Shown one piece after another: positions 3,571 to 25,571 of a stretch of 32,000 nt of DNA. Within the stretch, counting starts at the first letter, position 1, and each line of letters begins with the position of its first letter. Both the position numbers and the translations under genes were made by a program. This stretch comes from Nitrosococcus oceani ATCC 19707 (GTDB lineage: Bacteria > Pseudomonadota > Gammaproteobacteria > Nitrosococcales > Nitrosococcaceae). The stretch spans positions 3,240,001 to 3,272,000 of the forward strand of contig NC_007484.1 of assembly GCF_000012805.1 (NCBI RefSeq), given 5' to 3'. The notes beneath the pieces were generated by a model that saw only the letters and a program-made list of their open reading frames with translations, searched no databases and was not told the origin of the DNA.

Positions 3571-3629
3571 TGGCTGAACTTACGGCTCCATTCCTTATAA
3601 TGCCTAGCATTTCTATAGTTTCTATAAAA

Positions 3630-4706: not shown

Positions 4707-4710
4707 TGCC

Positions 4711-7634: not shown

Positions 7635-7650
7635 CTGCGTCCTTACTAGC

Positions 7651-9363
7651 TTACCCGCTATTTTCCCGCTCCGCTAAACGCAGGGGAGGCAAATTGTCCG
7701 GTGCAATGTTCAGCAATCGCATTGCCCCGATCATCACTTGAGAAAAAACCGGAGCCGCCACTTGTCCCCCATAGTATTTCCCCTGGGGTTCATCGATCAG
7801 CACCACTGCCGCTAAACGGGGATGGCTGGCGGGGATAAGACCGGCAAATACGGCAAGATACCTTTCCTTGGCATATCCGCCCCGAGTCGCTTTTTTCACC
7901 GTACCTGTCTTACCCGCCACCCGGTAGCTAGGAACATAGGCTCGCTCTCCCGTGCCACCATCACTAATCACCTCTTCAAGCATAGACAACACTGCAGGCG
8001 CAATGCCCTCAGACCACACCTGACGCCCCTTTATGGCCTGTTCTCGATAAAGGAAGCTGACTGGCTTTAGCTCACCTCCCGCCCCTAAAGCTGCGTAAGC
8101 CCGAGCTAACTGCAGCGGGGTTACCGAAAGGCCGTAGCCAAAAGCCAGCGTGGCTTGCTCAATTTCCCGAAAAGGAAAAAAACGAGGATTAGGCAAATGG
8201 CCTTCCGCTTCGCCAGGAAATCCACTGGCTGTTGAAGCCCCTAGCCCCGCTTGGGAAAAACCCTGCCAGAGACGCTGCGGATCGAGGCTTAAGGCAATTT
8301 TACTTGCGCCTACATTGCTTGATTTTTTAATCACTGTGCTGACGTCAATGCGACCATAATTACGAATATCACGAATGGTATAACGTCCTACCCGGAAGTA
8401 ACCGGGTGCTGTATCAATAGGGGTATGGGGATAATACTTTCCCGACTCCAGCGCTATCCCTATCGTGAAAGGCTTGATAGTAGAACCGGGTTCAAATAAA
8501 TCCGTAACTGCCCGATTACGATATAAATGGCTTTTCAGCTGAGAACGATCATTGGGATTGTAAGAAGGCTGATTCACCATCGCTAAAACTTCACCGGTGC
8601 CAACATCCAGAATCACCAATGAACCAGCGCGGGCATTATGGGCCTGAACCGCCGTTTTAAGTTCCCGATAAGCTAAATACTGAAGCCGCAGGTCAATACT
8701 TAAGCGCAGATCTCGTCCCGGCCGCGGGACTCTCAGATTCTCCACATCCTCCACTACCCGCCCACGGCTATCCTGGATAACCCGCTTTTTACCCGGAATT
8801 CCTCGCAGGGTCTCATCAAAAGCCAACTCCAGGCCCTCCTGGCCCCGATCATCAATATTGGTAAACCCCACCACATGGGCCGCTACTGGACCCGCAGGAT
8901 AATAGCGCCGGTATTCCGATTGGAGATTAACGCCGGGGATATCCAGAGCTTGTACTCGCTGGGCCACATCGGGTTCGACCCAGCGATTCAGGTACACAAA
9001 CTCCCGCTCACCTCCTTCTTTTATCCGTTTTTCCAGATGGGCCATGGAAACGCCTGCTGCTTTTGCCAGTGCGCGCCATTGTTCCCTAGCCTTACCTAAC
9101 AGTTGAGGATTGAACCATATCGAAGCCACGGGTGTGCTCACGGCCAAAGGCTCCCCATGACGATCAGTAATGATGCCCCGATGAGCAGGCATCTTCACAA
9201 CCCGAAGGTGACGGGCTTCTCCTTCCCCTCGCAGGAAATCGCAGTCGAGCACTTGCAACTCGATGAGGCGCCAAGCCAGCCCAGCAACGGCCACGGCAAA
9301 AACAAGCCCTACGACCCCTAAGCGGCCAGGATAATCCTTATCGTGTCCTCGTCGGCTTACCAT
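7651..9363 (-). CDS. ftsI: FtsI / PBP3, division-specific class B transpeptidase
   Basis: 570-aa ORF with an N-terminal membrane anchor. All three penicillin-binding motifs are present: STIK (FEPGSTIKPF), SSN (KSSNVG) and KTG (AGKTGTV). It overlaps the ftsL stop. Confidence 0.93.
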   Translation of the reverse strand: MVSRRGHDKDYPGRLGVVGLVFAVAVAGLAWRLIELQVLDCDFLRGEGEARHLRVVKMPAHRGIITDRHGEPLAVSTPVASIWFNPQLLGKAREQWRALAKAAGVSMAHLEKRIKEGGEREFVYLNRWVEPDVAQRVQALDIPGVNLQSEYRRYYPAGPVAAHVVGFTNIDDRGQEGLELAFDETLRGIPGKKRVIQDSRGRVVEDVENLRVPRPGRDLRLSIDLRLQYLAYRELKTAVQAHNARAGSLVILDVGTGEVLAMVNQPSYNPNDRSQLKSHLYRNRAVTDLFEPGSTIKPFTIGIALESGKYYPHTPIDTAPGYFRVGRYTIRDIRNYGRIDVSTVIKKSSNVGASKIALSLDPQRLWQGFSQAGLGASTASGFPGEAEGHLPNPRFFPFREIEQATLAFGYGLSVTPLQLARAYAALGAGGELKPVSFLYREQAIKGRQVWSEGIAPAVLSMLEEVISDGGTGERAYVPSYRVAGKTGTVKKATRGGYAKERYLAVFAGLIPASHPRLAAVVLIDEPQGKYYGGQVAAPVFSQVMIGAMRLLNIAPDNLPPLRLAERENSG

Positions 9364-9638
9364 TTCATAAGTGTGATAATGACCACTTCGCTTGGGTTCG
9401 GCACAACCATCCCAAGCCGTTCATGAGCCAAGTGTTCCACCCGCCCCTGCCTAGCCAATGTACTTTGTTCCAGAAGTAAACGCCCCCATTCCTCATCTAA
9501 TTGATCCCTTACCTTATAAAAGCTCTGTAACTCCATAAATAGCTTGCGGTTCTCATGCTTGACATAAACCACGGCCACGCCCGAACCTATAACCAAGGCA
9601 CTTAATACCGCTACTAACAACCAGCGCGCCAGGACCAT
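9357..9638 (-). CDS. ftsL: FtsL, cell-division protein
   Basis: 93-aa ORF with a single N-terminal TM helix (WLLVAVLSALVIGSGVAVVYV) followed by a coiled-coil-like stretch. It occupies the conserved position between rsmH and ftsI. Confidence 0.85.
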   Translation of the reverse strand: MVLARWLLVAVLSALVIGSGVAVVYVKHENRKLFMELQSFYKVRDQLDEEWGRLLLEQSTLARQGRVEHLAHERLGMVVPNPSEVVIITLMKW

Positions 9639-9648
9639 GAACGCTCCG

Positions 9649-10596
9649 CTAATACGTCTGTTTCTCCGCTACCCGTAGCCGTGCGCTACGGGCTCGAGGA
9701 TTATGGGCAATCTCTTCTGGGACCGGCCAAATCGGCTTACCTAATACTTTCAGGCTAGCTTGCTGAAAATCCTTCTGCATGACTGGTAGATCCGGGGGCA
9801 GCTCTTCCCCCCGGGCTTTCTCTCTAAAAAAACGTTTAACGATTCGATCCTCTAGAGAATGAAAACTTATCACCGCCAAACGTCCCTTGACCGCAAGCGC
9901 CGCCAGCGCCTGCTCAAGCGCGGCGCGCAGTTCTTCCAATTCATGGTTGATAAAAATACGGATTGCTTGAAAGGAGCGGGTCGCAGGATGCATCCTTCGT
10001 TCCCAACGGGGAATAGCTTTGGCTACGACTTCAGCCAGTTGCTTCGTGCGAGTCAGAGAATTGAGTTCTCGGGCCTGGATAATGGCTCGGGCAATGCGTC
10101 GGCAATAGCGCTCTTCTCCATAAACCCTAAGAACCTCTGCGATCTCTTTTTCTTTAGCATTAGCAAGCCATTCGGCCGCGCTTTGTCCCACTGTTGGATT
10201 CATGCGCATATCCAAAGGCCCATCCCGTAAAAAACTAAAACCTCGCTCAGCACTCTCAAGCTGGGGAGAAGAAACACCCAGATCAAACAACACTCCATTT
10301 ATCCTTTTTAACCAGCCCCGCTCCGACACTACCCGGGCCAAATCTCCGATAGAAGCCTGAACAATGGTAAAACGCCCGTCCTTTTGGGCTAGGGCATGAC
10401 CCGCAGCGATAGCTGCTGGATCTTTATCCACGCCCAGCAAGCGTCCTTCGCTGGACAGCGCAGCTAAAATTGCCTGGGCATGGCCGCCACGGCCAAAAGT
10501 ACCGTCTATATATAGGCCATCTCTCCGAATGGCCAAGGCTTGAATAGCTTCTCGCAGCAGCACAGGTTGGTGGCTTGAGATTTCATTGTTATCCAT
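9649..10596 (-). CDS. rsmH: RsmH (MraW), 16S rRNA m4C1402 methyltransferase
   Basis: SAM-binding motif DGTFGRGGH and the conserved PVLL near the N-terminus. I place the start at the internal ATG at 10594-10596 (MDNNEISSHQPVLLREA), 17 nt after the mraZ stop. The track ORF reaching 10707 would overlap mraZ by 94 nt. Confidence 0.9.
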   Translation of the reverse strand: MDNNEISSHQPVLLREAIQALAIRRDGLYIDGTFGRGGHAQAILAALSSEGRLLGVDKDPAAIAAGHALAQKDGRFTIVQASIGDLARVVSERGWLKRINGVLFDLGVSSPQLESAERGFSFLRDGPLDMRMNPTVGQSAAEWLANAKEKEIAEVLRVYGEERYCRRIARAIIQARELNSLTRTKQLAEVVAKAIPRWERRMHPATRSFQAIRIFINHELEELRAALEQALAALAVKGRLAVISFHSLEDRIVKRFFREKARGEELPPDLPVMQKDFQQASLKVLGKPIWPVPEEIAHNPRARSARLRVAEKQTY

Positions 10597-10613
10597 AGGG
10601 GCATTTTCCGTTC

Positions 10614-11063
10614 TCAAAGCGCTAATAGGGCCAGCTCCCGAGTCAGTTCTTCTTTGGCCGACGCCTCCTCTTTTGCCATTTGCCGTTCCCAAACCATCGA
10701 GTCCCACAGTTCAAATTTGTTGCCCTGCCCCACCAAGCTAATATTCTTCCCAAGCTCTGTCCGGCTCCTCAGCTCTAGTGGTAACAGAATACGACCATGA
10801 CCATCGAGCTCGCACTCCTCTGCATGACCAATAAGTCGTCGCTTGATATACCGAGCCTGGCGATTATGGGAGGGCAAGGCTACCAATTTCCGCTCTACAA
10901 TTTCCCACTCGGGCAGGGGATATAACTGCAAGCAAGGCTCAAGCAAATCAACTGTGATAATGACTTTACCATCGCAACAGATCCCTAAGGATTTGCGGTA
11001 TTTGGCAGGTATGGATAACCGTCCTTTGGCATCCAGGTTGAGTGTGGTTATCCCCCGAAACAA
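10614..11063 (-). CDS. mraZ: MraZ, dcw-operon transcriptional regulator
   Basis: 149-aa ORF starting MFRGITTLNLDAKGRLSIP (TTG start). It carries the duplicated MraZ DxxxR motifs (LDAKGRLSIP and LDGHGRILLP). It is the first gene of the dcw cluster. Confidence 0.93.
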   Translation of the reverse strand: MFRGITTLNLDAKGRLSIPAKYRKSLGICCDGKVIITVDLLEPCLQLYPLPEWEIVERKLVALPSHNRQARYIKRRLIGHAEECELDGHGRILLPLELRSRTELGKNISLVGQGNKFELWDSMVWERQMAKEEASAKEELTRELALLAL

Positions 11064-11153: not shown

Positions 11154-11286
11154 CAGAGACTTAAGAGTTTCCTTTAAGTTTTCCCTGAAATAGCATATTT
11201 TTTTCAAAAATTTCAAGTATTTACAAACGAATGCTTGGGAAAAGGTTGAAGCTAAGAAGAAAGGGGAAAGGCAATAATGCGAAAGG

Positions 11287-11640
11287 ATTGAGACGACCGA
11301 TAAGCCGGGTTCTGTCGTGGACAGCCATTCATCTGGGATACATGTCACCATGCACCTCAAGCAGCCTACCCAGGAACGATGCGGGCCACATCTTTGTTCC
11401 TCTATTTGGCCTTGCTCCGAGTGGGGTTTACCTTGCCACGGTGTGTTGCCACCCGCGCGGTGCGCTCTTACCGCACCATTTCACCCTTACCGGCGCCCGC
11501 AGACGCTTAGGCGGTATATTTTCTGCGGCACTTTCCGTAAGCTCACGCCCCCCAGGCGTTACCTGGCACCCTGCCCTATGGAGCCCGGACTTTCCTCATT
11601 ACCTGAATTCAAGGTAACGCGGCTGTCTGGTCGTCTCATT
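11287..11640 (-). ncRNA. rnpB: RNase P RNA (bacterial type A, M1 RNA)
   Basis: The minus strand reads GAGACGACCAGACAGCCGCG...GAGGAAAGTCCGGGCTCCATAGGGCAGGGTGCCAGGTAACGCCTGGGGGG...GGTAAGGGTGAAATGGTGCGGTAAGAGCGCACCGCGCGGG...CTGTCCACGACAGAACCCGGCTTATCGGTCGTCTC. These blocks closely match the universally conserved regions of E. coli M1 RNA as I recall them. A P1 stem can form between GAGACGACC (11629-11637) and GGTCGTCTC (11290-11298). The ends are approximate to within about 5 nt. Confidence 0.93.
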
Positions 11641-11642
11641 AA

Positions 11643-11648
11643 ATTATA
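11643..11648 (-). promoter_or_regulatory. Candidate -10 box for rnpB
   Basis: A perfect TATAAT lies on the minus strand (plus attata, 11643-11648), 5 nt upstream of the first P1 nucleotide. I could not find a convincing -35. Confidence 0.3.
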
Positions 11649-11694
11649 ATAAGCTTAAATAGAAGGCGGGTTCTACATTTTGCTTAAATTAATT

Positions 11695-12648
11695 CTACCC
11701 GAGCGAATCTTCTTTGTCCTTGTCTATCGGATCCTGGTGGATAATAATCTCTGCTTGGGGAAAAATATTCAAGACCTTAGCCTCTACTTCTTTCCCTATC
11801 CGATGGGCCCGGTACAAACTTAACTGCCCATCCACACCTAGATGAAATTGAATAAATATATTTTGGCCGGCAGCTCGTGTCCGGAGATCATGGAAATCGA
11901 GCACTTCAGGATGGGATAAAGCAAGTTGGGTAATCTGCGCGCGCTTTTCTTCCGGCAGCTCCCGGTCCATGAGCTGGTCCAGCGAGCGGAAAATAATTTG
12001 CCAGGCAGTCCATAAAATATAAGCTGCAATACCCAACGCAAACAGTGGATCAGCCAGAGTCCAGCCCCCAAGCGTGCTTAACCCAATAGCCGCTATAACC
12101 CCCAAATTAACCAGCACATCCCCCGTGTAATGGAGCGAGTCCGCGCTAATCGCCAGGGAACCCGTCTTACGTATTACGCCGCGCTGATAGTAGACTAAGG
12201 CAAGCGTCAGCATAGTGGATACGCCCATCACGCCTATACCTAAAGCGCCATTTTCTACTGGCTGCGGTACCCATAGTAGCCTTATGGATTCCACCGCTAG
12301 AAAAAGCGCGGACCCCGTAATAAAAGCCGCCTGGCCTAACCCAGCCAAGGGTTCAGCTTTACCATGACCAAAACGGTGCTCCCGATCAGCTGGCGTCAGC
12401 GCGGTACGCACCGCAAACACATTAATCAGGGAAGCCGCCACATCTAGGGCAGAGTCAATCAAAGCGGAGAGCATAGCTACAGAGCCCGTCACTAGGTAAG
12501 CACCTAACTTAATCACCACAAGAATTACCGCCACCGACACGGCGGCATAGGTGGCACGCTGCGTAATCCGAGCATGATCACGAGATATAAGGACGGTTTC
12601 CGAAGGAAATATCGCCTTTTTAAGCTTATTTTCGGTTTGAGCCTTCAT
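11695..12648 (-). CDS. Cation diffusion facilitator (CDF) family divalent-metal efflux transporter, FieF/YiiP-like
   Basis: Six predicted TM helices. CDF metal-site motifs are present: DSALDVAAS (TM2 DxxxD) and HYTGDVLVN (TM5 HxxxD). The FieF-type loop HRFGHGKAEPLAGL and a C-terminal cytoplasmic domain are also present. I prefer the start at the internal ATG (MKAQTENKLKK, 12648) over the TTG-type extension to 12720. Confidence 0.85.
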   Translation of the reverse strand: MKAQTENKLKKAIFPSETVLISRDHARITQRATYAAVSVAVILVVIKLGAYLVTGSVAMLSALIDSALDVAASLINVFAVRTALTPADREHRFGHGKAEPLAGLGQAAFITGSALFLAVESIRLLWVPQPVENGALGIGVMGVSTMLTLALVYYQRGVIRKTGSLAISADSLHYTGDVLVNLGVIAAIGLSTLGGWTLADPLFALGIAAYILWTAWQIIFRSLDQLMDRELPEEKRAQITQLALSHPEVLDFHDLRTRAAGQNIFIQFHLGVDGQLSLYRAHRIGKEVEAKVLNIFPQAEIIIHQDPIDKDKEDSLG

Positions 12649-12749
12649 CCTTTCGCTCGCTATGAAATAAATGGGATTAGCGCAAGATGCATAAATAATT
12701 GGCGGTGGGGGTAAAAACAAAACCAGCTATCTGTCGGCGAATTTTCCGC

Positions 12750-14780
12750 TCAAAAACGGACCACTACGCTGCCGCGAATACTACGCGGAATGACAGGATG
12801 AAAAAGAATATCCGGAACGCCGCTTGATGGCTCTCCCGGCAGGCGAGAATCATAAAAATAAGCAATATCCGGATCTTCCGAGTTCAGAAGATTCAAAACG
12901 TCAAGCGCTATTTCCCATTGCTTAGCGTTGTACCCTGCTTTTAAGTTGAGCACTGTAGTACTGCGCGCTTTTACGTTCCCCCCCTCGGTTAAAGGAGAAT
13001 CGCCATAATGGCGAAGACGCAGTGCGCCAAAAAAACGGGTATTGGCCGGCCAATCCATGGTAACGCCTGCACTAATCACCCGTCCCAAAGAATTGGGCAC
13101 TTCCCCTCCTCCAGCAAATTTTGCTTTTGAAAACGCAAAGTCCGCCTCCAACGTGAGCCAGGAGATCAACTGATAGGAATTAGTCCATTCCACGCCGTAG
13201 CGATTACTGCTACCGGAGGGTTCAGTCGTGCCCGCATCACCCACAAAAACCAACTCAGAATCTAAAGCAAGGTACCATACGGCCAATGTCGTTGTAAGCC
13301 CCGGGATCCCCTGGTTCTTAAGACCCCCTTCTGCCCCTTGGGATCTGACCAAAGGATTGACTTGCTTAAGCGGCATGCCTGTTTCAGGATCCACCGTTGC
13401 CGTAACGCCGCGGGCATCATTGCTATGAAAACCATAGCCTGCATTAATAAAATATTCCGTTTTAGCCCAAGGTCCTAAGATAAAGCTCAGTTTCGGGCTG
13501 GCGATAAAATCCGTTCGATCGCCGGTATTTTCAGGCAGCCTACTATTCACATCAAAATTGTAAAAATCGCCCCGCAATCCTACAACGGAACGAAATTTAT
13601 CATTCCATTTTATTTCGCTTTCTCCATACCAACCTACTCTGCTTTGATAGACCTGGTCGCTGCGGACAGTACTTAGGCTCTTACGAGCCCGGGTGTGAAA
13701 AAGCCCCACCTCACCAATCGCATCATGGCGAAACTGCAAACCAATGGTATTAGCAACCTCTCGCTCGCCCCAGGCCAAAAACCAGGTATGCTCGGCTTCG
13801 GTGCCCACCACCCAGCGCCGATCTTTTTGATGTATCTGATCACCATTAAGGGGATCCTCAAGAAAAAAGGTAAAATTCGAGTAGAGATCGAGATCGTAGT
13901 AAAATCCATAGGCTGTGATATGAGTGCTGCTATTAGCCCGGTGATGTCGCCAGTTCACACCCAAACTATACCGGCTGCTTTCCCCCCCATCCGTGGGATC
14001 AATCGTGCCTAGACGGGAGATAAGCCCTTGCTCCACAGCGCGTTGCGGGATTTGATCCGTCGCCTTCCAACGCCCATGATAAGCTGAGCCCAATAAGGTT
14101 AGACCTTGGGCGCTATCACCCACCGTATACTTAATAAGCCCCTTATACTGCTTGCTATCATTGGAATGCACCCAAGGTCCATTATAAAAATTAAATTCAC
14201 CCGCATAAACCAGATCACCCTTTCCCAATTGGCTGGAATCAGCCAATAAACCACGATAAAAATCGTCCTCTCCAACGGCCAACTTCGCAATCCCCTGAGA
14301 CAGCCGATTAAAGGTTTGGATGCGGGCGTTTCCCGCCGAAGAAAAATCTCCAACATCCGCATAGTAAGGGCCTTTTTGAAAGGCAATACTCTCAACCATC
14401 TCAGGAATAAGACTATTTAAATCAAGATAGCCCTGTCCATGGGCATGGGTAGGCAAATTCAGCGGAATTCCATCAATGCTGGCTGAAAAATCGGTACCGT
14501 GATCCAGGTTGAATCCTCGCAGAAAATATTGATTGGCTTTACCCGGCCCGCTGTGCTGGGTTGCAATCATTCCCGGCACGACTTCTAGCAACTCGCCAAT
14601 CCTTAACAGGGGCCGCTTTTCGAGTTGAACATAGCTGACGCGGCCTTGGGAAACCGAAGCAGTAGGCCCAGTTAAATCTTTGGCATACTCGGTAACATTG
14701 ATTTTATCTAATTCGGCTGTTAGCGGCTCAGACTCTACGGGATGGGCATAAATCGCTTTACTCAAAAAAAAAGCGCGCAA
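12750..14780 (-). CDS. TonB-dependent outer-membrane receptor; the N-terminal signal peptide appears separated by a frameshift in an A9 tract
   Basis: 676-aa ORF with a plug domain (LEVVPGMIATQHSGPGKANQYFLRGF, GIPLN) and a long beta-barrel ending in the aromatic terminal residue VVVRF. The tracked TTG start leaves no usable signal peptide. An ATG at 14819-14821 opens a 19-codon ORF (MKDKKIWSTLLRGGCALFF) that would join in frame if the tract at 14764-14772 were 10 or 7 nt long. Confidence 0.85.
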   Translation of the reverse strand: MRAFFLSKAIYAHPVESEPLTAELDKINVTEYAKDLTGPTASVSQGRVSYVQLEKRPLLRIGELLEVVPGMIATQHSGPGKANQYFLRGFNLDHGTDFSASIDGIPLNLPTHAHGQGYLDLNSLIPEMVESIAFQKGPYYADVGDFSSAGNARIQTFNRLSQGIAKLAVGEDDFYRGLLADSSQLGKGDLVYAGEFNFYNGPWVHSNDSKQYKGLIKYTVGDSAQGLTLLGSAYHGRWKATDQIPQRAVEQGLISRLGTIDPTDGGESSRYSLGVNWRHHRANSSTHITAYGFYYDLDLYSNFTFFLEDPLNGDQIHQKDRRWVVGTEAEHTWFLAWGEREVANTIGLQFRHDAIGEVGLFHTRARKSLSTVRSDQVYQSRVGWYGESEIKWNDKFRSVVGLRGDFYNFDVNSRLPENTGDRTDFIASPKLSFILGPWAKTEYFINAGYGFHSNDARGVTATVDPETGMPLKQVNPLVRSQGAEGGLKNQGIPGLTTTLAVWYLALDSELVFVGDAGTTEPSGSSNRYGVEWTNSYQLISWLTLEADFAFSKAKFAGGGEVPNSLGRVISAGVTMDWPANTRFFGALRLRHYGDSPLTEGGNVKARSTTVLNLKAGYNAKQWEIALDVLNLLNSEDPDIAYFYDSRLPGEPSSGVPDILFHPVIPRSIRGSVVVRF

Positions 14781-14883: not shown

Positions 14884-15408
14884 TTACTGATACGCTGCAA
14901 CGATATTCTCAAGGGTTTCATGTTCGTTGTATTCTCTGATTTTTTTGATATTTCCGAAGTCTTTTTCTATGGGGTTAAAGTCAGGGGAATAAGGGGGGAG
15001 GAATAAAATTCCCGCCCCTGTTTTTTTGATGATTTCACGTGAAGAAACGGCTTTGTGGAACGGAGCATTATCCATGATGACAATGTGGTTGCTGTTGAGC
15101 AAGGGGCAAAGCTCTTTTTCCAGCCATGCATTGAACACAGCCGTGTTACAGGTTCCCTCAAATAGAAACGGCGCTTCAAAGCCTTCATCCATACGGGCGG
15201 CCAATAAAGAGGTTCGCGGTCTGCGATGACCGGAGATCAGACCATAAACACGCCGCCCCTTTGGAGCGTAAGCGTAACGACGGGAAACCTCCGGCTCAAA
15301 ACCGCTTTCATCAAGATAGACAAATCTTTTGCCGCGGCGGCGATAGCGTTCACGAAGGCGAAGAAAGCTCTTTCTTTTCATATTACAGCGCTGCGTGTAC
15401 CCCGTCAT
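14884..15408 (-). CDS. IS630-family transposase, DDE catalytic part (orfB)
   Basis: The catalytic triad is visible: YLDESGF, IVIMDNAPFH and FNPIEKDF. I count 35 residues between the second D and the E (DD35E), as in IS630/Tc1. The frame is +1 relative to orfA. Removing one A from the A8 run fuses the two ORFs into about 277 aa. Confidence 0.85.
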   Translation of the reverse strand: MTGYTQRCNMKRKSFLRLRERYRRRGKRFVYLDESGFEPEVSRRYAYAPKGRRVYGLISGHRRPRTSLLAARMDEGFEAPFLFEGTCNTAVFNAWLEKELCPLLNSNHIVIMDNAPFHKAVSSREIIKKTGAGILFLPPYSPDFNPIEKDFGNIKKIREYNEHETLENIVAAYQ

Positions 15409-15718
15409 TTTTTTTACGGGTTAACCCCATTTTGTGCATCGCATGCCAAATACAGTAATACGAAACGCCAAAATGCCGGGCGCGTTCTTTATAGGTGAGA
15501 GCAGCCTTGTCTTCCACATGGACCCGTAAAGCCTCCCAGTCCAGCTTGTGTGAACGGCGAGGGCCGGGACGCTCGTAACACAGCGCATCATCCTGCGACA
15601 ACCAGCGATAAATGCTCGCGCGGCCTACCTGAAATCTCCGGGCCGCTTCCGCCTTGCTTCCACCGCCCCTTACAAAATCGATTACTCGTTTGCGCAAATC
15701 AATTGAACATCTCATCAC
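15383..15718 (-). CDS. IS630-family transposase, N-terminal HTH part (orfA)
   Basis: 111-aa ORF with helix-turn-helix-like segments (SKAEAARRFQVGRASIYRWL and YKERARHFGVSYYCIWHAM). It ends just after an A8 run (minus strand, 15408-15415). Confidence 0.85.
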   Translation of the reverse strand: MMRCSIDLRKRVIDFVRGGGSKAEAARRFQVGRASIYRWLSQDDALCYERPGPRRSHKLDWEALRVHVEDKAALTYKERARHFGVSYYCIWHAMHKMGLTRKKNDGVHAAL

Positions 15719-17239: not shown

Positions 17240-17824
17240 CTATGAGGCAAGCAGCCACAGGCCAGCACCTGCGGAACAGGTGCCCAGCATACGGACAAGA
17301 GGGGCAAAACGAGGGGGCAGAAAGCTGACGAGTCCAAAACCAATGGCATGCAGCGCCATGGTAGCCAGTACAAAACCCATGGCAAATCCGGCCGGGCTAG
17401 CCAATACCGGAATCTCCACCCCATGGGCATAGCCGTGGTTAACGGCAAACAAGGCTGTTCCCAATATCGCTACGAACAGGGGCAAACGTATGGCTAGGGC
17501 AACCAATAAACCCAGGGCGAGCACAGATACGGCGATAGCGTTCTCTACAAACGGCAGCGTTATTCCAAGATAAGCCGCCGATAGGCCGGCAAACAGCATG
17601 GCCAGAATAAAAGTCGCTGGCACCACTAGCCGCGCCTTCCCTTGCTGCTGAGCGGCCCATAGTCCCACGGCAAACATTGCCAACAAGTGATCCAAACCGG
17701 TCAAAGGATGCAGCAATCCGCTGATGAAGCCAGAAAAGTCATGCTCCGTATGGCCGGGGTGAGCCAGCGCAATACTAGAAAATAGTAGCAATGCAAGAAT
17801 GGATAGGTATTTTTTTGTCTTCAC
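17240..17824 (-). CDS. hupE: HupE/UreJ-family nickel permease
   Basis: 194-aa ORF with a signal peptide ending IALA/HPGH. The family signature HPxxGxDH is present (LLHPLTGLDHLLAM). It is a multi-TM protein directly downstream of ureG. Confidence 0.88.
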   Translation of the reverse strand: MKTKKYLSILALLLFSSIALAHPGHTEHDFSGFISGLLHPLTGLDHLLAMFAVGLWAAQQQGKARLVVPATFILAMLFAGLSAAYLGITLPFVENAIAVSVLALGLLVALAIRLPLFVAILGTALFAVNHGYAHGVEIPVLASPAGFAMGFVLATMALHAIGFGLVSFLPPRFAPLVRMLGTCSAGAGLWLLAS

Positions 17825-17842
17825 AATAAACTCTCCCTCTCA

Positions 17843-18454
17843 TTAGGTTTTAAACAGACCTTGGCGTTCAATGAAATCAATGATCTGATCGAGCCCCTCC
17901 CCGCTTTTTAAATTGCTGAACAAAAAGGGGCGCTCGCCACGCATTTTGCGTGCGTCTCGGTCCATGACTTCCAAGGAAGCACCTACGAGGGGAGCTAAAT
18001 CAGTCTTATTGATAATCAGCAAATCGGATTTACAAATTCCAGGACCACCTTTACGGGGGATTTTCTCGCCCGCGGCGACATCAATCACATACAGGGTTAA
18101 ATCGGACAACTCAGGGCTGAAGGTCGCCGCCAAGTTGTCGCCGCCGGATTCCACCAAGATCAGATCAAGATCTGAAAAACGCTGGCTAAGTTGGGCCACC
18201 GCCTCCAGATTAATAGAAGCATCTTCCCGAATCGCCGTATGAGGACAGCCGCCTGTTTCCACGCCAATAATCCGCTCTTGCGCAAGCGCCTGGTGGCGCA
18301 CCAGAAATTGAGCATCCTCCTCGGTATAAATATCATTAGTGACGACGGCCACATTGTAGCGATTGCGCAAGGCATTGCAGAGAGAAAGGGTAAGGGTTGT
18401 CTTACCGGACCCCACCGGACCTCCTATGCCAACACGCAGAGGTTGCTTACTCAT
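17843..18454 (-). CDS. ureG: UreG, urease accessory GTPase
   Basis: 203-aa ORF with the P-loop [10 protein letters not shown], the ETGGCPH metal-binding motif, and ESGGDNL and NKTDL GTPase motifs. Confidence 0.95.
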
Positions 18455-18468
18455 TATTAATAAACCTC

Positions 18469-19143
18469 CTAGGATCGAAATAAACGAGTGTATTGAGTTT
18501 CATGGATCATAGAAGCAATCGAGAGGCCCAACGTACCGTTGGCCAGCTGCTCATCAGAGCATGCCAGAGCAGTCTCAAGAGCTTCATCCAGTTCTGGCAA
18601 CAGCTGCGAGAGCAGCCGCTGGGCCGCCTGCTGACCCAAAGGTAGCGCTTTCATTAACGCCGCCAGTTGATTTTCTAGCCAACCCCAAAGCCAAGCAGCC
18701 ACCGCGCTTCGGGTGTCAAGGTTCCAAGTTCGAGCAGCCACTGCCCAGACCAAGGGCAAAGGCGGTTCCACAAAACCCAACAGCTGATGCCGCATCGCCT
18801 CATCCAATTCAGGCAAATCGTTTAACAGCTGAACCAAGGAAAAACCCATTTGCCGGCTTTCCTGGTATAGCTCGCGGGTTTCACGGCTGGCGACATACTC
18901 TTCCGCCCAATAAAATAACTGCTGCCACTGCCCCTGGGCCGCTGCCTCCAACATGCGGGCAAACAGGGGCGCTTCAAAACAGGCGATATTCATGGCTAAT
19001 TGGTCAGAAAGCCAGAGGCGGACGCTGTCGGCATCCCAGACAATGCCCTGATCGATAGCGCTCTCTAGCCCCTGGGAATAGGTATAGGCACCAATAGGCA
19101 ATTGCGGACTTGCTAGACGCAACAAGGGCCAAAGACTGTTCAT
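18469..19143 (-). CDS. ureF: UreF, urease accessory protein
   Basis: 224-aa ORF whose N-terminus [21 protein letters not shown] is typical of UreF. Its start overlaps the ureE stop (ATGA). It lies between ureE and ureG. Confidence 0.9.
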
Positions 19144-19643
19144 TGGCTCCCTCCGAAATGGTGCAAACGGGGCTTGGAATGGAACTCATCCCCCTCATGA
19201 TGGCTGTGACTATGATGGTGGCCCCCTCCATAAGCGCCCGATTCGGGTTGGTAAGGAGCAGTAACCTCGAAAACTTCCACACCGAGGCGCATTAGCATAT
19301 CGCGCAGCACATAATCTGGCGGTAAACGCAACCAGTGCGCTCCTATCTCCAAACGCACATGACGATTGCCCAGATGATAGGCAGCCCGAACCAAAGTAAG
19401 CGGATCGGAGGTGCGTACCTCCATCAATAGCTCGGGCTTAGCCTGGATAGCCAGTACCAGGCCTTCCGCGGTTCCCAAGCGTTCTCCTTCAACTAGAGGC
19501 GCGCCCCGTTCGATGAGAAAAGCGGCCTCACGGCCATCGGGTAATGGGAAGCGCAACCGGCTGCGCTCCCGCTGCTCAAAAGTAAAAGCCATCTCTAGAT
19601 CTGCCGGAGTATCGCTTGGCAGACGCCGCTCAAAGCACAGCAT
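19140..19643 (-). CDS. ureE: UreE, urease nickel metallochaperone with a His-rich tail
   Basis: 167-aa ORF with the conserved AYHLGNRHV motif and the C-terminal His-rich tail GGGHHHSHSHHEGDEFH. Confidence 0.92.
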   Translation of the reverse strand: MLCFERRLPSDTPADLEMAFTFEQRERSRLRFPLPDGREAAFLIERGAPLVEGERLGTAEGLVLAIQAKPELLMEVRTSDPLTLVRAAYHLGNRHVRLEIGAHWLRLPPDYVLRDMLMRLGVEVFEVTAPYQPESGAYGGGHHHSHSHHEGDEFHSKPRLHHFGGSQ

Positions 19644-19661
19644 AAGCTTAAAGAGTCCCTG

Positions 19662-21362
19662 CTAAAATAGAAAATAACGTTGGGCCATGGGCAGAACCTT
19701 AGATGGCTCGAACCATAAAAGCTGGCCATCGGCACGCACCTGATAGTTCTGAGGGTCCACTTCTATGCGCGGCAGCGCGTTGTTATGGATCAGATCGCTT
19801 TTGCGCAGGCCGCGAATATTTTTCACCGCCACAAGACGCTTCTGGAGGCCCAGCTTCTCGCCGATGCCTTCATCTAACCCTGCTTGGGAAACAAAGCTGA
19901 CGCAGCTCGCGGTGCGGCTGCCGCCAAAACTGCCGAACATGGGACGGTAATGCACCGGCTGCGGGGTGGGAATAGAGGCGTTGGGATCCCCCATGGGAGC
20001 AGTGACAATCACACCTCCTTTTAGCACCAAACTTGGCTTAACCCCAAAGAAGGCTGGTTTCCACAGCACCAAATCCGCCAGTTTCCCCACTTCTATCGAG
20101 CCGATCTCGTGGGCTATTCCATGGGTGATCGCCGGGTTAATCGTGTACTTGGCAATATAGCGCTTAATGCGAAAATTATCATGATCCCCCTTATCCTCCG
20201 GTAAGGTACCCCGGTCGCGTTTCATAACTGATGCGCTCTGCCAAGTGCGCAAGATCACCTCCCCCACCCGGCCCATGGCCTGGGAGTCGGAACCATGCAT
20301 ACTCAACGCTCCCATATCATGTAGGGCATCCTCGGCGGAAATCGTCTCCCGCCGAATACGGCTTTCGGCAAAGGCCACATCTTCCGGAATGGAAGGGTCC
20401 AGGTGATGGCAAACCATCAACATGTCTAGGTGCTCATCTATGGTATTTGCCGTGAAGGGAGTGGTCGGGTTAGTGGAACTAGGCAGTACGTTCGCCTCGC
20501 CGCAAGCCTTGATGATATCCGGCGCGTGGCCACCCCCGGCACCTTCCGTATGATAGGTATGAATAGTGCGGTCCTTGAAGGCGGCAATCGTGTCCTCAAC
20601 GAAACCGGATTCATTGAGGGTATCCGTATGAATAGTCACCTGCACATCGAAACGCTCCGCCACGCTCAAACAATTATCAATGGCGGCTGGCGTGGTACCC
20701 CAGTCTTCGTGCAACTTAAGACCGAGTACCCCCGCCCGTACCTGCTCCTCAAGGGATTGGGGTAAACTGGCATTGCCCTTACCTAAAAAACCCATATTTA
20801 TGGGGAAAGCATCCGCCGCCTGGAGCATCCGTCCAATATTCCATGACCCCGGCGTGCAGGTAGTCGCATTGGTGCCAGTTGCTGGGCCTGTGCCGCCGCC
20901 AATCAGGGTAGTCACCCCCGAGGTTAGCGCTTCTTCCACTAACTGGGGACAGATAAAATGAACATGGCTATCGATACCTCCTGCGGTGAGAATCTTGCCT
21001 TCCCCAGCAATAACTTCAGTCGCGGCCCCAATATTAATATCTACGTTAGGTTGGGTGTCAGGGTTCCCGGCTTTGCCTATCGCCGCGATACGACCATCCT
21101 TGATGCCCACATCAGCCTTGATGATTCCCCAATGGTCTACAATGAGAGCATTGGTAATCACCAAATCCATGACCTGATCCCTGGAAAGCTGGCTTTGGCC
21201 CATCCCATCACGGATGACCTTGCCACCACCAAATTTAACCTCATCTCCATAGGTCGTTAAATCCCGTTCCACTTTGATCCACAGATCCGTGTCGGCTAAA
21301 CGCACCCGGTCTCCTGTAGTAGGGCCATAGGTATCCGCATAAGCGTGCCGAGAAATTTTCAT
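19662..21362 (-). CDS. ureC: UreC, urease alpha (catalytic) subunit
   Basis: 566-aa ORF with urease active-site blocks: [32 protein letters not shown] and MVCHHLD. Confidence 0.97.
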
Positions 21363-21664
21363 AGCGCCCCCATAATTTTGCCGTTAAACCCATATACATG
21401 GCGCCGCCCTGCATACTCCACCAGTTCTACCGTACGGCTTTGTCCAGGTTCAAAACGCACCGCATTACCCGCCGGGATATTTAAGCGCATCCCCCGGGTC
21501 TTATCCCGATCGAAGGACAAGGCGCCATTGGTTTCAAAAAAATGAAAATGAGATCCTACTTGGATGGGGCGATCACCCGTGTTAGCTACACTGATCGAAA
21601 GCGTACGGCGGCCCGCATTAAGCTCGATATCTCCGCCCGCTGTTTGTACTTCCCCTGGTATCAT
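21359..21664 (-). CDS. ureB: UreB, urease beta subunit
   Basis: 101-aa ORF starting MIPGE, with the conserved [15 protein letters not shown]. Its stop overlaps the ureC start (ATGA). Confidence 0.95.
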
Positions 21665-21694
21665 GGGTATAGATCCTCTTTATTATCATTAATT

Positions 21695-21997
21695 TTAGGT
21701 AATAGGATGGTGGACCGTCACCAGCTTAGTACCATCGGGAAAGGTGGCCTCTACCTGGATATCAGATATCATTTCCGGCACTCCTTCCATGACTTCATCC
21801 CGGGTCAATAAAGTCGTGCCGTGGTGCATCAACTCGGCAACGCTCATACCCTCCCGTGCTTTCTCCAGCACGGCTGCGGAAATGTACGCTACTGCCTCCG
21901 GATAATTGAGTTTCAAACCCCGCTCGCGGCGTCTTTCGGCTACCAAGCCCGCGGTAAAAATCAGCATCTTGTCTTTTTCCCGTGGAGTGAGTTCCAT
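21695..21997 (-). CDS. ureA: UreA, urease gamma subunit
   Basis: 100-aa ORF starting [23 protein letters not shown], the canonical urease gamma N-terminus. Confidence 0.95.
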
Positions 21998-22014
21998 AAA
22001 ACCTCCTTAACAGT

Positions 22015-22905
22015 TCAGGTATTCCAAATACGAGGAATAGATACGGAGCGGCCCAATAAAGCGGGACGCAGTTCTTGCCACAAGGCGATAAACCAATTGC
22101 GCGCTGCCTCGGTTTCCTCACCCAGAAAGCGCGCGACAACTAGCCCTGGAAGTTGGCTCAAACCGCCACGCCCTCCTTCGATTGGAAGGCTGCGGCAGGC
22201 GGTTAACTGCTGATCGTTTAGCTCTCCACTCGCGAGCAAGGTGCCCGCCACGGGATAGCCAGCAAAACCAATGGGCGATTCGAGCAATCGGCTGCCCCCA
22301 AGCAGTTGCATCCGCTCACTCCAAAGCAGACGGCCGTTGCGGCGCAGGCGAAATCGTTGATAAATCCGTCCTGAGTTAAACCGCTCCCCGCTGGCAGGCC
22401 GGCCAAGGGCAATAATATCCCAAGCAATTACCTTGGCATCCTCAGCCAAGTCAATAGTGGTATCCAACGCTGTCTGACAACCTGCAAAAAAAATGGTCTC
22501 TTGGGGCAACCATTCAAGGATGCCACCAGGCTCCGTGCTCAATGCCAGGTTTTGCCGAGCTAACGAAACCTCGGAGCGGTACCACTTTGCTGCCCCAGGA
22601 CTGGTCAGCTGCGCCCAGGCATGGGAGCCCGCATGTATTTGGATATCCAAGGTATCACCCCCCGCGATACCCCCGGGAGGATGTAAAATCATATGCTGAC
22701 AAACTGCTGGCCCTTCCGGATAAAGGTGTTTTTGTACCCGCAGCGGTCCTTGATGACGCCGCAAGACGGGCACAGTGCGCATTTTCACCCGCTGATAACC
22801 AAGTTCAAGCTTAGCGGGCCAAGACAAAGGGAGTAGGTCAGTTTTGGCAGGAGGAGCATCCGCCGCTTCACAAGGCATCTGCTTAAAAACAGCTATTTTT
22901 TTCAT
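22015..22905 (-). CDS. ureD: UreD (UreH), urease accessory protein
   Basis: 296-aa ORF immediately upstream of ureA, with UreD-like blocks ([19 protein letters not shown]). The start is uncertain between MKK at 22905 and an internal Met. Confidence 0.85.
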
Positions 22906-22982
22906 AGGCCGCTCGCTTCAATTCATAAAATGAGCGTATAAAACCCACTGGGGACTAAAGATTTTAGGGCTCTGCGACACCT

Positions 22983-24098
22983 CTATTCCCTTTGATCCTC
23001 CATCGGCTTTTCTGGGTCCAGCTGATGCGGCGAATCACGCCTTTTTTCAGGGGCCCCCTCAATTTCCTGGGCCGCAAAGCGAGCTAAATTGGCTTCCGGG
23101 GTAAGAGCTTCCGCTGGCAGAATATATCTTAATCTGCCAACACTCATCGCCCCGAGCAGCAGCGCCCAGGTAACGATAACAAAGGGGAAAGTGTAAACGG
23201 GAAATTCCAGGTGATACAGGGCAAGCCCAACCGCCAAACTCACCCAAACGGTAACCACCACGCCAAACAAAGCATAGAAGCCAGAACTGATAGTAAAACG
23301 AACAAATAAGACGACCGCTAATGCCGTTAAAATTGGATTATAACTGTGAAGTCCTAGTCGAATACTCTCCTCAGTCACACCAAATAGCATGGCTGCCGTA
23401 ATAGATAGCAACGCTGCTAGCAAACCCATGATTGCGCTGATACGGGAATTAATGAGAATCCCCAGTAAAATTAGATATCCCGCAATGGCGCTATCTTGCA
23501 AAAAAATCTCACTGAATCCCTTGCCAATGCCCATGTACCAGGTTTCTAAAGTGTATTGCCGATATTCTTCTATACGGTGGCCAATCTCAGGCTGAAAAAG
23601 TTGGTAGGCATAGCTCTCCAAGGCGCCCGGCGTTTCAAGCTTGACGGTATGCTCAACCGATCCTACGAATATCCAAGCGCACAACACAAAGGGCATGGTC
23701 AAAGCAGGCATGTTCCAGGGAGAAAGAAACCTGCTGAGCGCCATCATCACCACCGTTGAGAAAGCTGATCCCATCACAACCAGAGACCATATCTTCCAAA
23801 CCGGCAGATCACCCAGGGTAACATTATGACTACTATAAAGACTGATCGCGATCCCTACCAAAACGCCATTAAAACCCAACAACCCAGCCCCAATAAGATC
23901 CTTATCAACCTTTAATAAAACGGCTGTCAGAGTACTGACGATCACTCCCACTAAAGCTGCCGTTCCCGCTGCTAAAGAAGCAAAAAAAAGGCCGGTTAGA
24001 ATAACCAGCCCTGAGATAGGATTGTTCTGAAATACAACTTGCCCAACGCCTCGCAGCAAAACGCTGACAGCTTTTATCATTATTTTTAATGACTGCAT
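22983..24098 (-). CDS. Urea transporter, UT (SLC14-like) family
   Basis: Polytopic membrane protein with the two-fold internal repeat typical of UT proteins: LRGVGQVVFQNNPISGLVILTGLF and GFSEIFLQDSAIAGYLILLGIL. I prefer the ATG at 24098 (MQSLKIM, preceded by GAGGG) over the GTG at 24125. It has a hydrophilic C-terminal tail of about 40 aa. Confidence 0.85.
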   Translation of the reverse strand: MQSLKIMIKAVSVLLRGVGQVVFQNNPISGLVILTGLFFASLAAGTAALVGVIVSTLTAVLLKVDKDLIGAGLLGFNGVLVGIAISLYSSHNVTLGDLPVWKIWSLVVMGSAFSTVVMMALSRFLSPWNMPALTMPFVLCAWIFVGSVEHTVKLETPGALESYAYQLFQPEIGHRIEEYRQYTLETWYMGIGKGFSEIFLQDSAIAGYLILLGILINSRISAIMGLLAALLSITAAMLFGVTEESIRLGLHSYNPILTALAVVLFVRFTISSGFYALFGVVVTVWVSLAVGLALYHLEFPVYTFPFVIVTWALLLGAMSVGRLRYILPAEALTPEANLARFAAQEIEGAPEKRRDSPHQLDPEKPMEDQRE

Positions 24099-24141
24099 AA
24101 CCCTCACACTTTCATACCCTCGCACTTTCGTAGCTTATTAC

Positions 24142-24170
24142 TATATAACTTATATTTTCGGCTTTTGTAA
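24142..24170 (-). promoter_or_regulatory. Candidate sigma70 promoter for the urea transporter and urease operon
   Basis: On the minus strand there is a TTACAA (24165-24170), a 17-nt spacer, then TATATA (24142-24147). It lies about 45 nt upstream of the ATG at 24098. Confidence 0.3.
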
Positions 24171-24462
24171 AGTACTCTCTCTAAATCATAAATCACGTGG
24201 AATAAGCTTCGCCCAACCTCTCGGGTAAGTATCGCTTCGCTACCAGCACTTACTAGGGGGTATTTAAATAAAAGTAATGAGGTCAGATAATAGAATAAAA
24301 TATTACAGAGGAGGCAGTAGAGAAAAACTTAAAGACTGCTATTTCCCCCATACCCTGCTCTGCCTCCGCAGTTCTTTATATAATTCACGAACTAATTTTC
24401 AATTAGAAATAATGGGATGATGAACTCGGGTTGCTGTCTCTAAATCTTTGGAAAACAGCTTA

Positions 24463-24639
24463 TTATCCAGCCTGTTGGTTGCGGCAAGCACATGCGCCGT
24501 GTTCACAGCCTTGCTCCCTAGCGCACGCTTCACTACAGTATACTTGTCCGTCTTTCTTTACGCCTTCCTCAGCGGTGACGACACACGAGCAGGGAGCATG
24601 CGCGCATTTCATCGTAGAACTCTGCGTGTCAGTATTCAT
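24463..24639 (-). CDS. Bacterial metallothionein, SmtA/BmtA family (58 aa; not in the supplied ORF track)
   Basis: My own translation gives MNTDTQSSTMKCAHAPCSCVVTAEEGVKKDGQVYCSEACAREQGCEHGACACRNQQAG, followed by TAA TAA. GAGGAG lies 10 nt upstream of the ATG. It aligns with Synechococcus SmtA as I recall it (KCACEPCLCNV...NGLYYCSEACADGH...GCGHTGCNC). The KCAxxPCxC, YCSEACA and C-x-H-x-x-C-x-C blocks are shared. I count 8 Cys and 2 His. Confidence 0.8.
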   Translation of the reverse strand: MNTDTQSSTMKCAHAPCSCVVTAEEGVKKDGQVYCSEACAREQGCEHGACACRNQQAG

Positions 24640-24673
24640 TTACTATAGTCTCCTCATTATACAAGCGCCAAGG

Positions 24674-24706
24674 AAAAAGACTATCGGAACTAACGATAGT
24701 CTTTTT
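24674..24706 (-). terminator. Hairpin / bidirectional-looking intrinsic terminator between the lipoprotein and metallothionein genes
   Basis: The element reads AAAAAGACTATCG-GAACTAA-CGATAGTCTTTTT. It has a perfect 8-bp core stem (24679-24686 pairing with 24694-24701), extendable by five A-T pairs, and a 7-nt loop. A T-run follows on the minus strand. It begins 15 nt after the lipoprotein stop. Confidence 0.55.
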
Positions 24707-24720
24707 CCAACCTGGTTTTC

Positions 24721-24990
24721 TTATTCTTTCGGCATGTCTACATCTACGTCAGGTACTTCTATCTCCTTTGTTTCAGTATCCACATCCACATCAGGAACTT
24801 CTATCTGTTTTTTCTCGGTGCCCACGTCCACATCTGGAGTATCTACATCATATTCTGGCATTTGGCCCGACTCTGTTTGGATATCAACATCTGGCATCTC
24901 ACCTTCTTGCGTTTTATCCACATCACAACCTGCTAGCACAAACGAAAACGCTAATAATAACGCGCTTATACTCAAGTTTTTATAAATCAT
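24721..24990 (-). CDS. Small, highly acidic lipoprotein with tandem PDVDV repeats
   Basis: 89-aa ORF with AGGAGG 6 nt upstream of the ATG. Lipoprotein signal peptide with the lipobox LAGC (Cys22). The mature part contains five (M/T/V)P(D/E)(V/Y)D(V/I)-type repeats, including two near-identical EIEVPDVDVD units. I count 24 Asp plus Glu against 5 Lys in 68 mature residues. Confidence 0.75.
   Translation of the reverse strand: MIYKNLSISALLLAFSFVLAGCDVDKTQEGEMPDVDIQTESGQMPEYDVDTPDVDVGTEKKQIEVPDVDVDTETKEIEVPDVDVDMPKE
24736..24897 (-). repeat. Intragenic tandem repeat (42-45-nt units plus degenerate copies) encoding the PDVDV motif
   Basis: Unit 24736-24777 and unit 24778-24822 share 24 of their first 29 nt (gtctacatctacgtcaggtacttctatct against atccacatccacatcaggaacttctatct). 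Shorter acatc(t/c)gg copies continue to about 24897. Confidence 0.7.
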
Positions 24991-25571
24991 AATACCTCCT
25001 GTGGCATTTTATTTTTACTACGTTTTGCTTTTCCTTAACCCTGACGGCAATATTTTTGAGTTCTACTAAAAGCACTCCACATTAATACTAGTACAAGTTA
25101 AATTAGCCTGCATTAATATTTTTACTATCAACCTAATAAATATTACAACTTCATTGTCAAATTTGCGTTTTTATTAGAACCATCAATGCGCTAAATTGAA
25201 CCCGATTACGACCTGATAGAACGCCCTCCAGCATTTGCGCTATACACTACAAGAAGCACATGTAATCTACACATTACAATTGTGTGCTAATTGGATAGAT
25301 CTAAACCAGTCTCGCCACTTTGACAAGGTAAATATTAATCATTTATGTTAATTTATACTGCCCGCGCAAATAAGGACATCCTGCTTAAGCACAGCAGGAA
25401 AGGGCAATTAGAACTTTGGGGAAGGGAAAAAGTTAAAGTATAAGGAGAGACGTTTGAGTGTCGTTGCTTAACCTCTTTTTTGGGAATTCCAAATTAATTA
25501 TTTTACCTAATGTTAGCCATGGATAAAATATTATAATGGCTATAGCTTATTTGAATAGACGTTAGCTTGAG

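Follow-up and report, generated by a model that had tools for sequence, protein, structure and literature searches.

Which metal does a small cysteine-rich protein bind when its gene lies between a nickel-dependent urease system and the gene of an acidic lipoprotein? This question is raised by a 58-codon open reading frame (ORF) in the genome of Nitrosococcus oceani ATCC 19707, a marine gammaproteobacterial ammonia oxidiser. From the DNA letters the ORF had been read as an unannotated metallothionein (MT) of the SmtA/BmtA type with an altered metal cluster, and Zn, Cu, Cd and Ni had been named as the metals that it might buffer. We analysed the locus within a window, i.e. the whole stretch of 32,000 nucleotides on which that reading was based (contig NC_007484.1, positions 3,240,001 to 3,272,000). 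The features are compiled in Table 1.

Table 1. Features of the metallothionein locus and of the remaining window (+, forward strand; -, reverse strand).
Feature	Position	Strand	Details	Basis
bmtA-type metallothionein ORF	24463..24639	-	58 aa; coordinates take in the stop codon	Sequence, PF02069, model, identical records
ATG start codon (Met1)	24639..24637	-
TAA stop codon	24465..24463	-
Second in-frame TAA	24460..24462	-	Abuts the stop codon (double stop)	Read directly
Alternative start Met10	24610..24612	-	Gives 49-aa form, RefSeq WP_231561856.1	Public record
GAGGAG, SD-like	24650..24655	-	10 nt upstream of ATG (Met1); kept in N. watsonii and N. wardiae	Sequence
TATAAT, candidate -10 hexamer	24656..24661	-	TATAAA in N. 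wardiae, TATTAAT in N. watsonii	Sequence reading only
Promoter-like match TTGGCG-N18-TATAGT	24642..24671	-	9/12 matches	Consensus scan
Perfect 13-bp hairpin + T-run	24674..24706	-	AAAAAGACTATCG-(7 nt)-CGATAGTCTTTTT	Read directly
Acidic lipoprotein-like ORF	24721..24990	-	89 aa; lipobox LAGC, mature pI 4.05
Block highly similar to N. watsonii	24231..25571		~1.3 kb
Least conserved intergenic part	24099..24230
16-nt tandem repeat	24096..24127	-	GAAAGTGCGAGGGTAT
Downstream context: urea transporter, ureD, ureA, ureB, ureC, ureE, ureF, ureG, HupE/UreJ	17240..24098	-		Domain hits, public calls
Urea transporter	22983..24098	-		Public call
5' ureB sRNA match (RF02514)	20930..21216	+	Antisense to the 5' part of ureC	Rfam
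HupE/UreJ	17240..17824	-
IS630-family transposase, split in two ORFs	14884..15718	-	HTH_Tnp_IS630 15383..15718, DDE_3 14884..15408
TonB-dependent receptor	12750..14780	-
CDF-family cation efflux protein	11695..12720	-	Cation_efflux + ZT_dimer
Bacterial RNase P RNA class A	11285..11638	-	Full length, 342.9 bits
Spurious ORFs overlapping RNase P RNA	11231..11617; 11317..11649
dcw cluster	1031..11063	-	mraZ, mraW, PBP transpeptidase, three Mur ligase genes, ftsW

Identity of the ORF and predicted fold

Read on the minus strand, the ORF opens with ATG and its 58 codons translate into MNTDTQSSTMKCAHAPCSCVVTAEEGVKKDGQVYCSEACAREQGCEHGACACRNQQAG, a peptide also written MNTDTQSSTMKCAHAPCSCVVTAEEGVKKDGQVYCSEACAREQGCEHGACAC RNQQAG. 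Its extent, the GAGGAG element 10 nt from the start codon and the double stop were all as originally predicted. The residues of the predicted motif are likewise correct, apart from the spacer between CSCVV and YCS, which is 12 instead of 13 residues long. Putative ligands are C12, (H14), C17, C19, C35, C39, C45, H47, C50 and C52. With a GC content of 53.7%, compared with 51.2% for the window, the gene gives no sign of a recent foreign origin.

The protein matches the Pfam profile PF02069 (Metallothio_Pro) over positions 2-51 of 51 with 62.1 bits (E = 5.5e-17; gathering cutoff, 33 bits), so that the search proposed as a check on the original prediction came out positive. An NCBIfam search returned sub-threshold noise only (MymT, 9.2 bits versus a cutoff of 80, E 1.1). 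Best sequence matches in the PDB are SmtA (1jjd, E 2e-5) and the entries for the PflQ2 MT of Pseudomonas fluorescens Q2-87. An AlphaFold2 structure model derived from an alignment of 42 relatives (mean pLDDT 83.6) has strands at 20-22, 27-29 and 32-34 and a helix at 37-40, that is, a predicted beta-hairpin followed by a short helix. When this model was compared with the PDB by Foldseek, the top four matches (6grv, 6gv7, 6gv6 and 1jjd) were solved BmtA structures, with rmsd values of 1.3-1.7 A over 44-49 columns and a probability of ~1; the remaining matches were unrelated zinc fingers with probabilities of <= 0.21. Because of the PF02069 score and the superposition of the model on SmtA and the PflQ2 MT, the predicted assignment is correct: judged by profile match and modelled fold, the ORF is a genuine SmtA/BmtA-family metallothionein (PF02069, MT family 14).

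C12, C17, C35 and C39 align with the cysteines of the zinc-finger site A of SmtA, which we take to be those numbered Cys9, Cys14, Cys32 and Cys36. Furthermore, all three aligned proteins (the N. oceani MT, SmtA and PflQ2) share the residues that correspond to Y34 and A38. By their entry names, 6gv7 is the PflQ2 A44H mutant and 6gv6 the wild-type shortened form; the alignment used 6gv7 as the PflQ2 row, and A44H seems to concern the His in the CxH motif at the C-terminus. In SmtA, the Tyr31/Ala37 pair packs the hairpin against the helix, and site A, which is fully conserved in BmtA proteins, is a tetrahedral Cys4 zinc-finger site (PMC3323870).

This gene has entries in public databases and has appeared in the literature. 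An identical 58-aa protein is deposited as ABA59331.1, ADJ27176.1 and WP_011331083.1 under the name "metallothionein [Nitrosococcus oceani]" and in UniProt as Q3J765, "Metallothionein, family 14". N. watsonii, several assemblies of N. oceani and assemblies made from raw reads (sequencing runs) all have public gene calls with a precomputed PF02069 match. Barnett et al. (2012) reported that Nitrosococcus species carry bmtA genes (PMC3323870). Hence, the exact protein being named in GenBank, RefSeq and UniProt, the label "unannotated" has to be dropped. The accompanying remark that gene callers routinely miss such genes is sound as a general point, since bmtA ORFs are easily overlooked (PMC3323870), but the N. 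oceani gene itself was not missed. In the papers searched, guessed N. oceani locus tags and the known tag Nwat_0205 gave no match, and we found no expression data.

Start codon and upstream signals

Two start codons come into consideration, and Met1 is favoured over Met10 on sequence grounds. The 9-codon extension stays in frame in N. wardiae, where three of its four differences fall at third positions, and in members of the family 7-14 residues usually precede the first Cys. The lone change of N. watsonii within the extension is synonymous.

TATAAT lies immediately 5' of GAGGAG; therefore, GAGGAG may sit at or before the transcription start. If TATAAT served as the -10 element, the MT mRNA would have a very short leader. 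N. wardiae has kept the TATAAA-GAGGAGACT block, which is followed by an 8-nt insertion, and has a separate AAGGA closer to the ATG. Thus, the "strong SD" of the original prediction is present at the predicted distance, but it may precede the transcription start and is 18 nt away from the ATG in N. wardiae. The promoter-like match TTGGCG-N18-TATAGT would, if used, force a start at Met10. It is the less likely promoter, as it is not conserved in N. wardiae.

The perfect hairpin with its T-run, which was missed by the consensus terminator scan, ends ~30 nt from the ATG, and both TATAAT and GAGGAG fall into this distance. We regard it as the probable intrinsic terminator of the lipoprotein gene, by which that gene would be set apart from the MT gene. 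No Zur-box-like palindrome was recognised by reading the ~30 nt between this upstream terminator and the MT start codon.

The lipoprotein-like ORF itself codes for 24 Asp+Glu in 68 residues and for repeated (V)PDVDV motifs. A Pfam search with it gave no match, and its 756 homologues at E <= 0.001, from Woeseia, Luteimonas, Pseudomaricurvus and several Planctomycetes among others, are all hypothetical proteins. Of all neighbours, this gene alone accompanies the MT gene in each of the three Nitrosococcus species, its N. wardiae counterpart being 64% identical. The idea that it travels with MT genes more generally was rejected, because it is not found next to MT genes outside Nitrosococcus.

Conservation within Nitrosococcus

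The MT genes of N. watsonii and N. oceani differ by two nucleotides, both changes being synonymous. The nearest relative is the MT of N. wardiae (QBQ54074.1 / WP_240761804.1), which is 64% identical and has the same N-terminal extension. Here, 20 of the 35 differences in the core are at third codon positions, and all eight Cys and His47 are kept. Judged by this substitution pattern, the MT gene is under purifying selection. We therefore assign a practically negligible probability to a chance ORF or a decaying pseudogene. The ORF is indeed short and below many gene-caller thresholds, but the Pfam E-value, the calls by public pipelines in GenBank and sequencing-run assemblies, and the retention of the gene in three species with synonymous-biased change and intact ligands all stand against this explanation.

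The surroundings of the gene show an uneven divergence. When N. oceani is compared with N. watsonii, identity reaches 95-99% in a block that contains the MT and lipoprotein genes, the 3' flank of the former and the 581-nt intergenic region upstream of the latter; in the flanking genes (urease, transporter and 398-aa genes) it is no more than 90-95%. Since non-coding DNA is thus conserved above the level of neighbouring genes, the alignment suggests either a recent recombination tract or functional non-coding sequence that has not been recognised. Within the region, identity is lowest (76.5%) in the intergenic stretch next to the block, towards the transporter.

Ligand pattern and the short-loop subtype

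According to the alignment with SmtA, His14 of the N. oceani MT occupies the position of SmtA Cys11. The loop from the helix Cys to the next Cys is AREQG (5 residues) versus ADGHTGGSKG (10 residues) in SmtA, and His40 of SmtA is gone. Both the change from CxC to CxH and the shortened His40 loop had been foreseen. The wider comparison shows, however, that neither is special to the N. oceani gene.

A word-indexed homology search with the 58-aa protein returned only the protein itself and its 49-aa form, and an exhaustive HMMER search was therefore needed to find relatives. Among 1.84 billion representatives, 52 relatives were retrieved at E <= 0.001, 48 of which fit the Cys framework. The 5-residue loop is present in 46 of these 48 classified relatives, and the exact N. 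oceani pattern, which is the modal one, in 31 of 48. None of the 46 short-loop relatives has a Cys at the Cys11 position; the residue is His in 37, Tyr in four, Phe in two, and Asn, Arg or Gln in one each. When 42 short-loop members were aligned, the eight Cys were invariant and His47 was at least 90% conserved, with more variation in the His14 column. The N. oceani protein deviates by a Glu at the Gly of CAxGxGC, a position otherwise at least 90% conserved. Accordingly, the altered ligand pattern belongs to a common subtype. We define this short-loop "CxH" subtype by a 5-residue loop, a non-Cys residue (mostly His) at the Cys11 position, eight Cys and the C-terminal CxH, all of which are found in the N. 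oceani MT.

The picture differs in cyanobacteria, where all 80 loci have CxC and a 9-10-residue, His-containing loop. These 80 loci are all that were recovered by a genome-collection scan of species-representative genomes; all are cyanobacterial, and Nitrosococcus itself was not returned. Because the back-translated scan patterns, which ask for K/R before the first Cys and for YCS[EQ]AC, disfavour the short-loop subtype, and because the source genomes may be masked, the loci served only as an SmtA-type comparison group. The named short-loop members are mostly MAG proteins listed as "metallothionein [Gammaproteobacteria bacterium]". One member is encoded on a 1.37-Mb contig, and its neighbouring genes look planctomycete-like. 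A further metagenomic contig (L090) carries two PF02069 MT genes ~500 nt apart (6001..6213 and 6741..6956), adjoining genes for an ECF sigma factor and a Ser/Thr kinase. This pair represents a gene duplication within the short-loop subtype.

Proposed metal cluster

Two structurally characterised proteins allow a comparison of the cluster. SmtA of Synechococcus elongatus PCC 7942 (1JJD), the prototype of the BmtA proteins, belongs to the same Pfam family, has 42% sequence identity and superposes on the predicted fold with an rmsd of 1.5 A over 48 columns. Both proteins share the site A cysteines, the Tyr/Ala pair, the C-terminal C-x-H-x2-C-x-C and a 15-residue hairpin. They differ in host, SmtA being cyanobacterial and the N. 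oceani MT belonging to a gammaproteobacterial ammonia oxidiser, and in ligand set, with 8 Cys + 2 His in the N. oceani MT versus 9 Cys + 2 His in SmtA (His40, His49; Zn4Cys9His2). As Cys11 is replaced by His14, the His40 loop is deleted and only 8 Cys + 2 His are left, the aligned sequences argue that the N. oceani MT should not be filed as an SmtA-type Zn4 protein.

The second reference is the PflQ2 MT (6GRV, 6GV6, 6GW8; A44H mutant 6GV7), the best structural match to the model. It resembles the N. oceani protein in that it belongs to the BmtA family, comes from a gammaproteobacterium, deviates in its ligand set and has no metal sensor encoded next to it (PMC7387436). It binds three Zn (Zn3Cys9His) or four Cd, and site C is absent (PMC10612145; PMC7387436). 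Unlike the N. oceani MT, it has kept the N-terminal CxC and a 9-residue His-containing loop, and it carries a long disordered His-rich tail (81 aa) that the N. oceani protein lacks.

From these comparisons it is reasonable to propose a single thiolate/imidazole cluster around the zinc-finger site, similar to that of SmtA, with which the protein would sequester and buffer Zn(II) and bind Cd(II) as well. In this cluster the finger site (C12, C17, C35 and C39) would be kept and the remaining part would be smaller. In particular, the labile site C of SmtA is expected to be missing or remodelled, since Cys11 and the His40 loop are lost together. Blindauer et al. are said to have described, in 2001, Cys11 and His40 as both being ligands of site C in SmtA. 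The strict co-loss of Cys11 and the His40 loop among relatives is what one would expect if both form one site. Site C is also the least conserved and most labile site and the first to release zinc (PMC3323870; PMC10612145). We would therefore expect about three Zn on Cys8His1-2 instead of four, with eight Cys and His47 as the likely ligands. His14 may be either a remnant ligand of the fourth site or an aromatic cap; because it alternates with Tyr and Phe among relatives, as with the Tyr at this position in N. wardiae, it may be a cap and not an obligate ligand. In principle, four metals could still be held by ten ligands (8 Cys + 2 His) via more bridging thiolates.

By analogy with SmtA, which is a Zn-MT, zinc, and adventitiously cadmium, is most likely the metal of this MT. 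A four-coordinate ion is required at the finger site, and copper is poorly taken up: SmtA expressed with this metal bound only ~1.5 Cu (PMC3323870).

A role as Cu(I) buffer, comparable with that of MymT in mycobacteria, has to be weighed for an organism that depends on ammonia monooxygenase and multicopper oxidases. Ammonia oxidisers need much copper, proteins rich in thiolates have a high affinity for Cu(I), and the NCBIfam search did give a weak, sub-threshold match to MymT. Yet we regard this as very unlikely: with its score far from the cutoff the MymT match is noise, CopA, CsoR and CueR were not found in the window, and in SmtA the low copper content goes along with a finger site that excludes Cu(I) (PMC3323870).

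Urease neighbourhood and the nickel question

Nickel as the metal is suggested by position. The MT could be a nickel store or buffer for urease, co-transcribed with the urea transporter gene and ureDABCEFG-hupE/ureJ, and either deliver Ni(II) to UreE/UreG or shield the cell against nickel that has been imported. The MT gene is on the same strand, and a gap of 364 nt separates its stop from the publicly called start of the transporter gene (24098). A consensus scan found no canonical terminator in this gap, so that transcripts of the MT gene may extend into the transporter gene; the 196 nt after the MT stop showed no significant structure (folding z = -0.46 versus shuffles). The arrangement is retained in N. 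oceani strains and in N. watsonii.

Beyond these, however, the adjacency breaks down. N. wardiae likewise has the lipoprotein gene before the MT gene, but the latter is followed by convergent DAO/Rieske and DUF1264 genes and there is no downstream urease cluster. Five other loci of the subtype are likewise devoid of urease genes; their neighbours are BON, DUF883, DUF421, DksA/TraR and sensor kinase genes. A nickel role is unlikely for this reason, and the link to urease and nickel that had been drawn from the position of the gene is not sustained by the comparison. In addition, the low conservation (76.5%) beside the transporter gene suggests a separate promoter region, UreE is already the nickel metallochaperone, and the BmtA fold, by general coordination chemistry, suits d10 ions and not Ni(II). 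The conserved site A also speaks against nickel, being a tetrahedral Cys4 zinc-finger site (PMC3323870). Taken as a whole, a function in nickel supply is highly improbable, and the urease adjacency is most likely a positional coincidence. The nickel, copper and pseudogene readings of the ORF were thus rejected on the locus comparison, the SmtA copper data and conservation.

Some observations on the urease region are independent of the MT. The 16-nt tandem repeat lies directly before the start codon of the urea transporter gene. It is present in ~1.9 copies in the window and in 3.9 copies in another N. oceani assembly (L003, 10511..10572). Each unit carries GAGGGT-ATG-AAA-GTG-TGA, i.e. an SD-like element and a 3-codon mini-ORF, and the copy number could therefore affect translation of the transporter. 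The match to Rfam RF02514 (5' ureB sRNA) scored 90.1 bits versus a cutoff of 40; it may reflect the conserved coding sequence of the urease large subunit and not an antisense RNA.

Regulation and physiological role

SmtA is accompanied by a divergent smtB repressor gene; the N. oceani MT is not. No HTH_5/HTH_20 (ArsR/SmtB), FUR (Zur) or MerR domains were detected in the scanned ORFs of the window or in public calls within +/-10 kb, and none of the SmtB, Zur and ZntR probes found a match below E 0.5 by tblastn, in agreement with the original statement that no SmtB/ArsR repressor lies nearby. An adjacent smtB is not universal in the BmtA family (PMC3323870). BmtA (SYNW0359) of Synechococcus sp. 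WH8102, also a marine bacterium, lacks an SmtB regulator as well, and it is zinc-induced via Zur as activator, which makes control from a distance possible (PMC9337993); unlike the N. oceani MT, its sequence is of the cyanobacterial SmtA type. For the N. oceani gene, a distant Zur, another sensor or the growth phase could provide the signal.

The last of these possibilities leads to a different physiological role, that of a stationary-phase or general-stress protein acting as thiol redox buffer or as zinc reservoir during starvation, and not in detoxification. In Pseudomonas fluorescens, induction of the MT is confined to stationary phase, and the protein aids long-term survival under starvation and is dispensable for metal resistance (PMC7387436); therefore, "zinc buffer" may not be the physiological role in N. 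oceani either. Like its Pseudomonas counterpart, the N. oceani MT is without an adjacent metal sensor, and other subtype members are found among the stress-type genes BON, DUF883, DUF421 and DksA/TraR. Such neighbourhood hints are weak, however, and the SmtB-less BmtA of marine Synechococcus responds to zinc via Zur (PMC9337993). We consider the stress role the less probable one, albeit with an appreciable chance of being right. In mechanism it overlaps with the main explanation, as zinc would still be bound, and it differs in the physiological role.

In summary, we think it likely that the bmtA gene of N. oceani encodes a cytosolic metallothionein that buffers Zn(II), and also Cd(II), in a reduced cluster of ~3 Zn, that it has no adjacent SmtB-type repressor, and that its urease neighbours are unrelated.

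Other features of the window

The CDF-family efflux gene adjoins the TonB-dependent receptor gene ~10-13 kb from the MT gene, and this efflux gene possibly has a further part in metal handling in the region. The split IS630-family transposase also occurs in N. oceani AFC27 (L001). It is absent from the matching position in N. watsonii and in L003 and L005, the two other N. oceani loci long enough to cover it, and it is therefore a strain-specific insertion. The cell-division/cell-wall (dcw) cluster in the left part of the window, in which mraY lies between the second and third Mur ligase genes, is of the ordinary kind and unrelated to the MT.

Significance of the short-loop subtype

For the window itself the MT finding matters little, as the family is known, the gene is annotated and the nickel link fails the comparison. 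What deserves further attention is the short-loop CxH subtype, which seems to be biochemically uncharacterised throughout. Its members are encoded by Nitrosococcus, by gammaproteobacterial MAGs and by a planctomycete-like contig. We tentatively put forward, as a possibility that we hold to be doubtful, that these proteins are a structurally distinct and mostly non-cyanobacterial class, in which site C was lost as a unit and a compact three-metal Cys8His cluster with an aromatic cap would differ from SmtA in affinity, lability and role. If this is true, members of the class may be, for example, tight zinc reservoirs or stress proteins and not detoxifiers. Measuring one short-loop member would extend the view, gained from SmtA and the PflQ2 MT, of how ligand variation tunes zinc buffering. 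Since N. oceani is in culture, its MT would be a practical choice.
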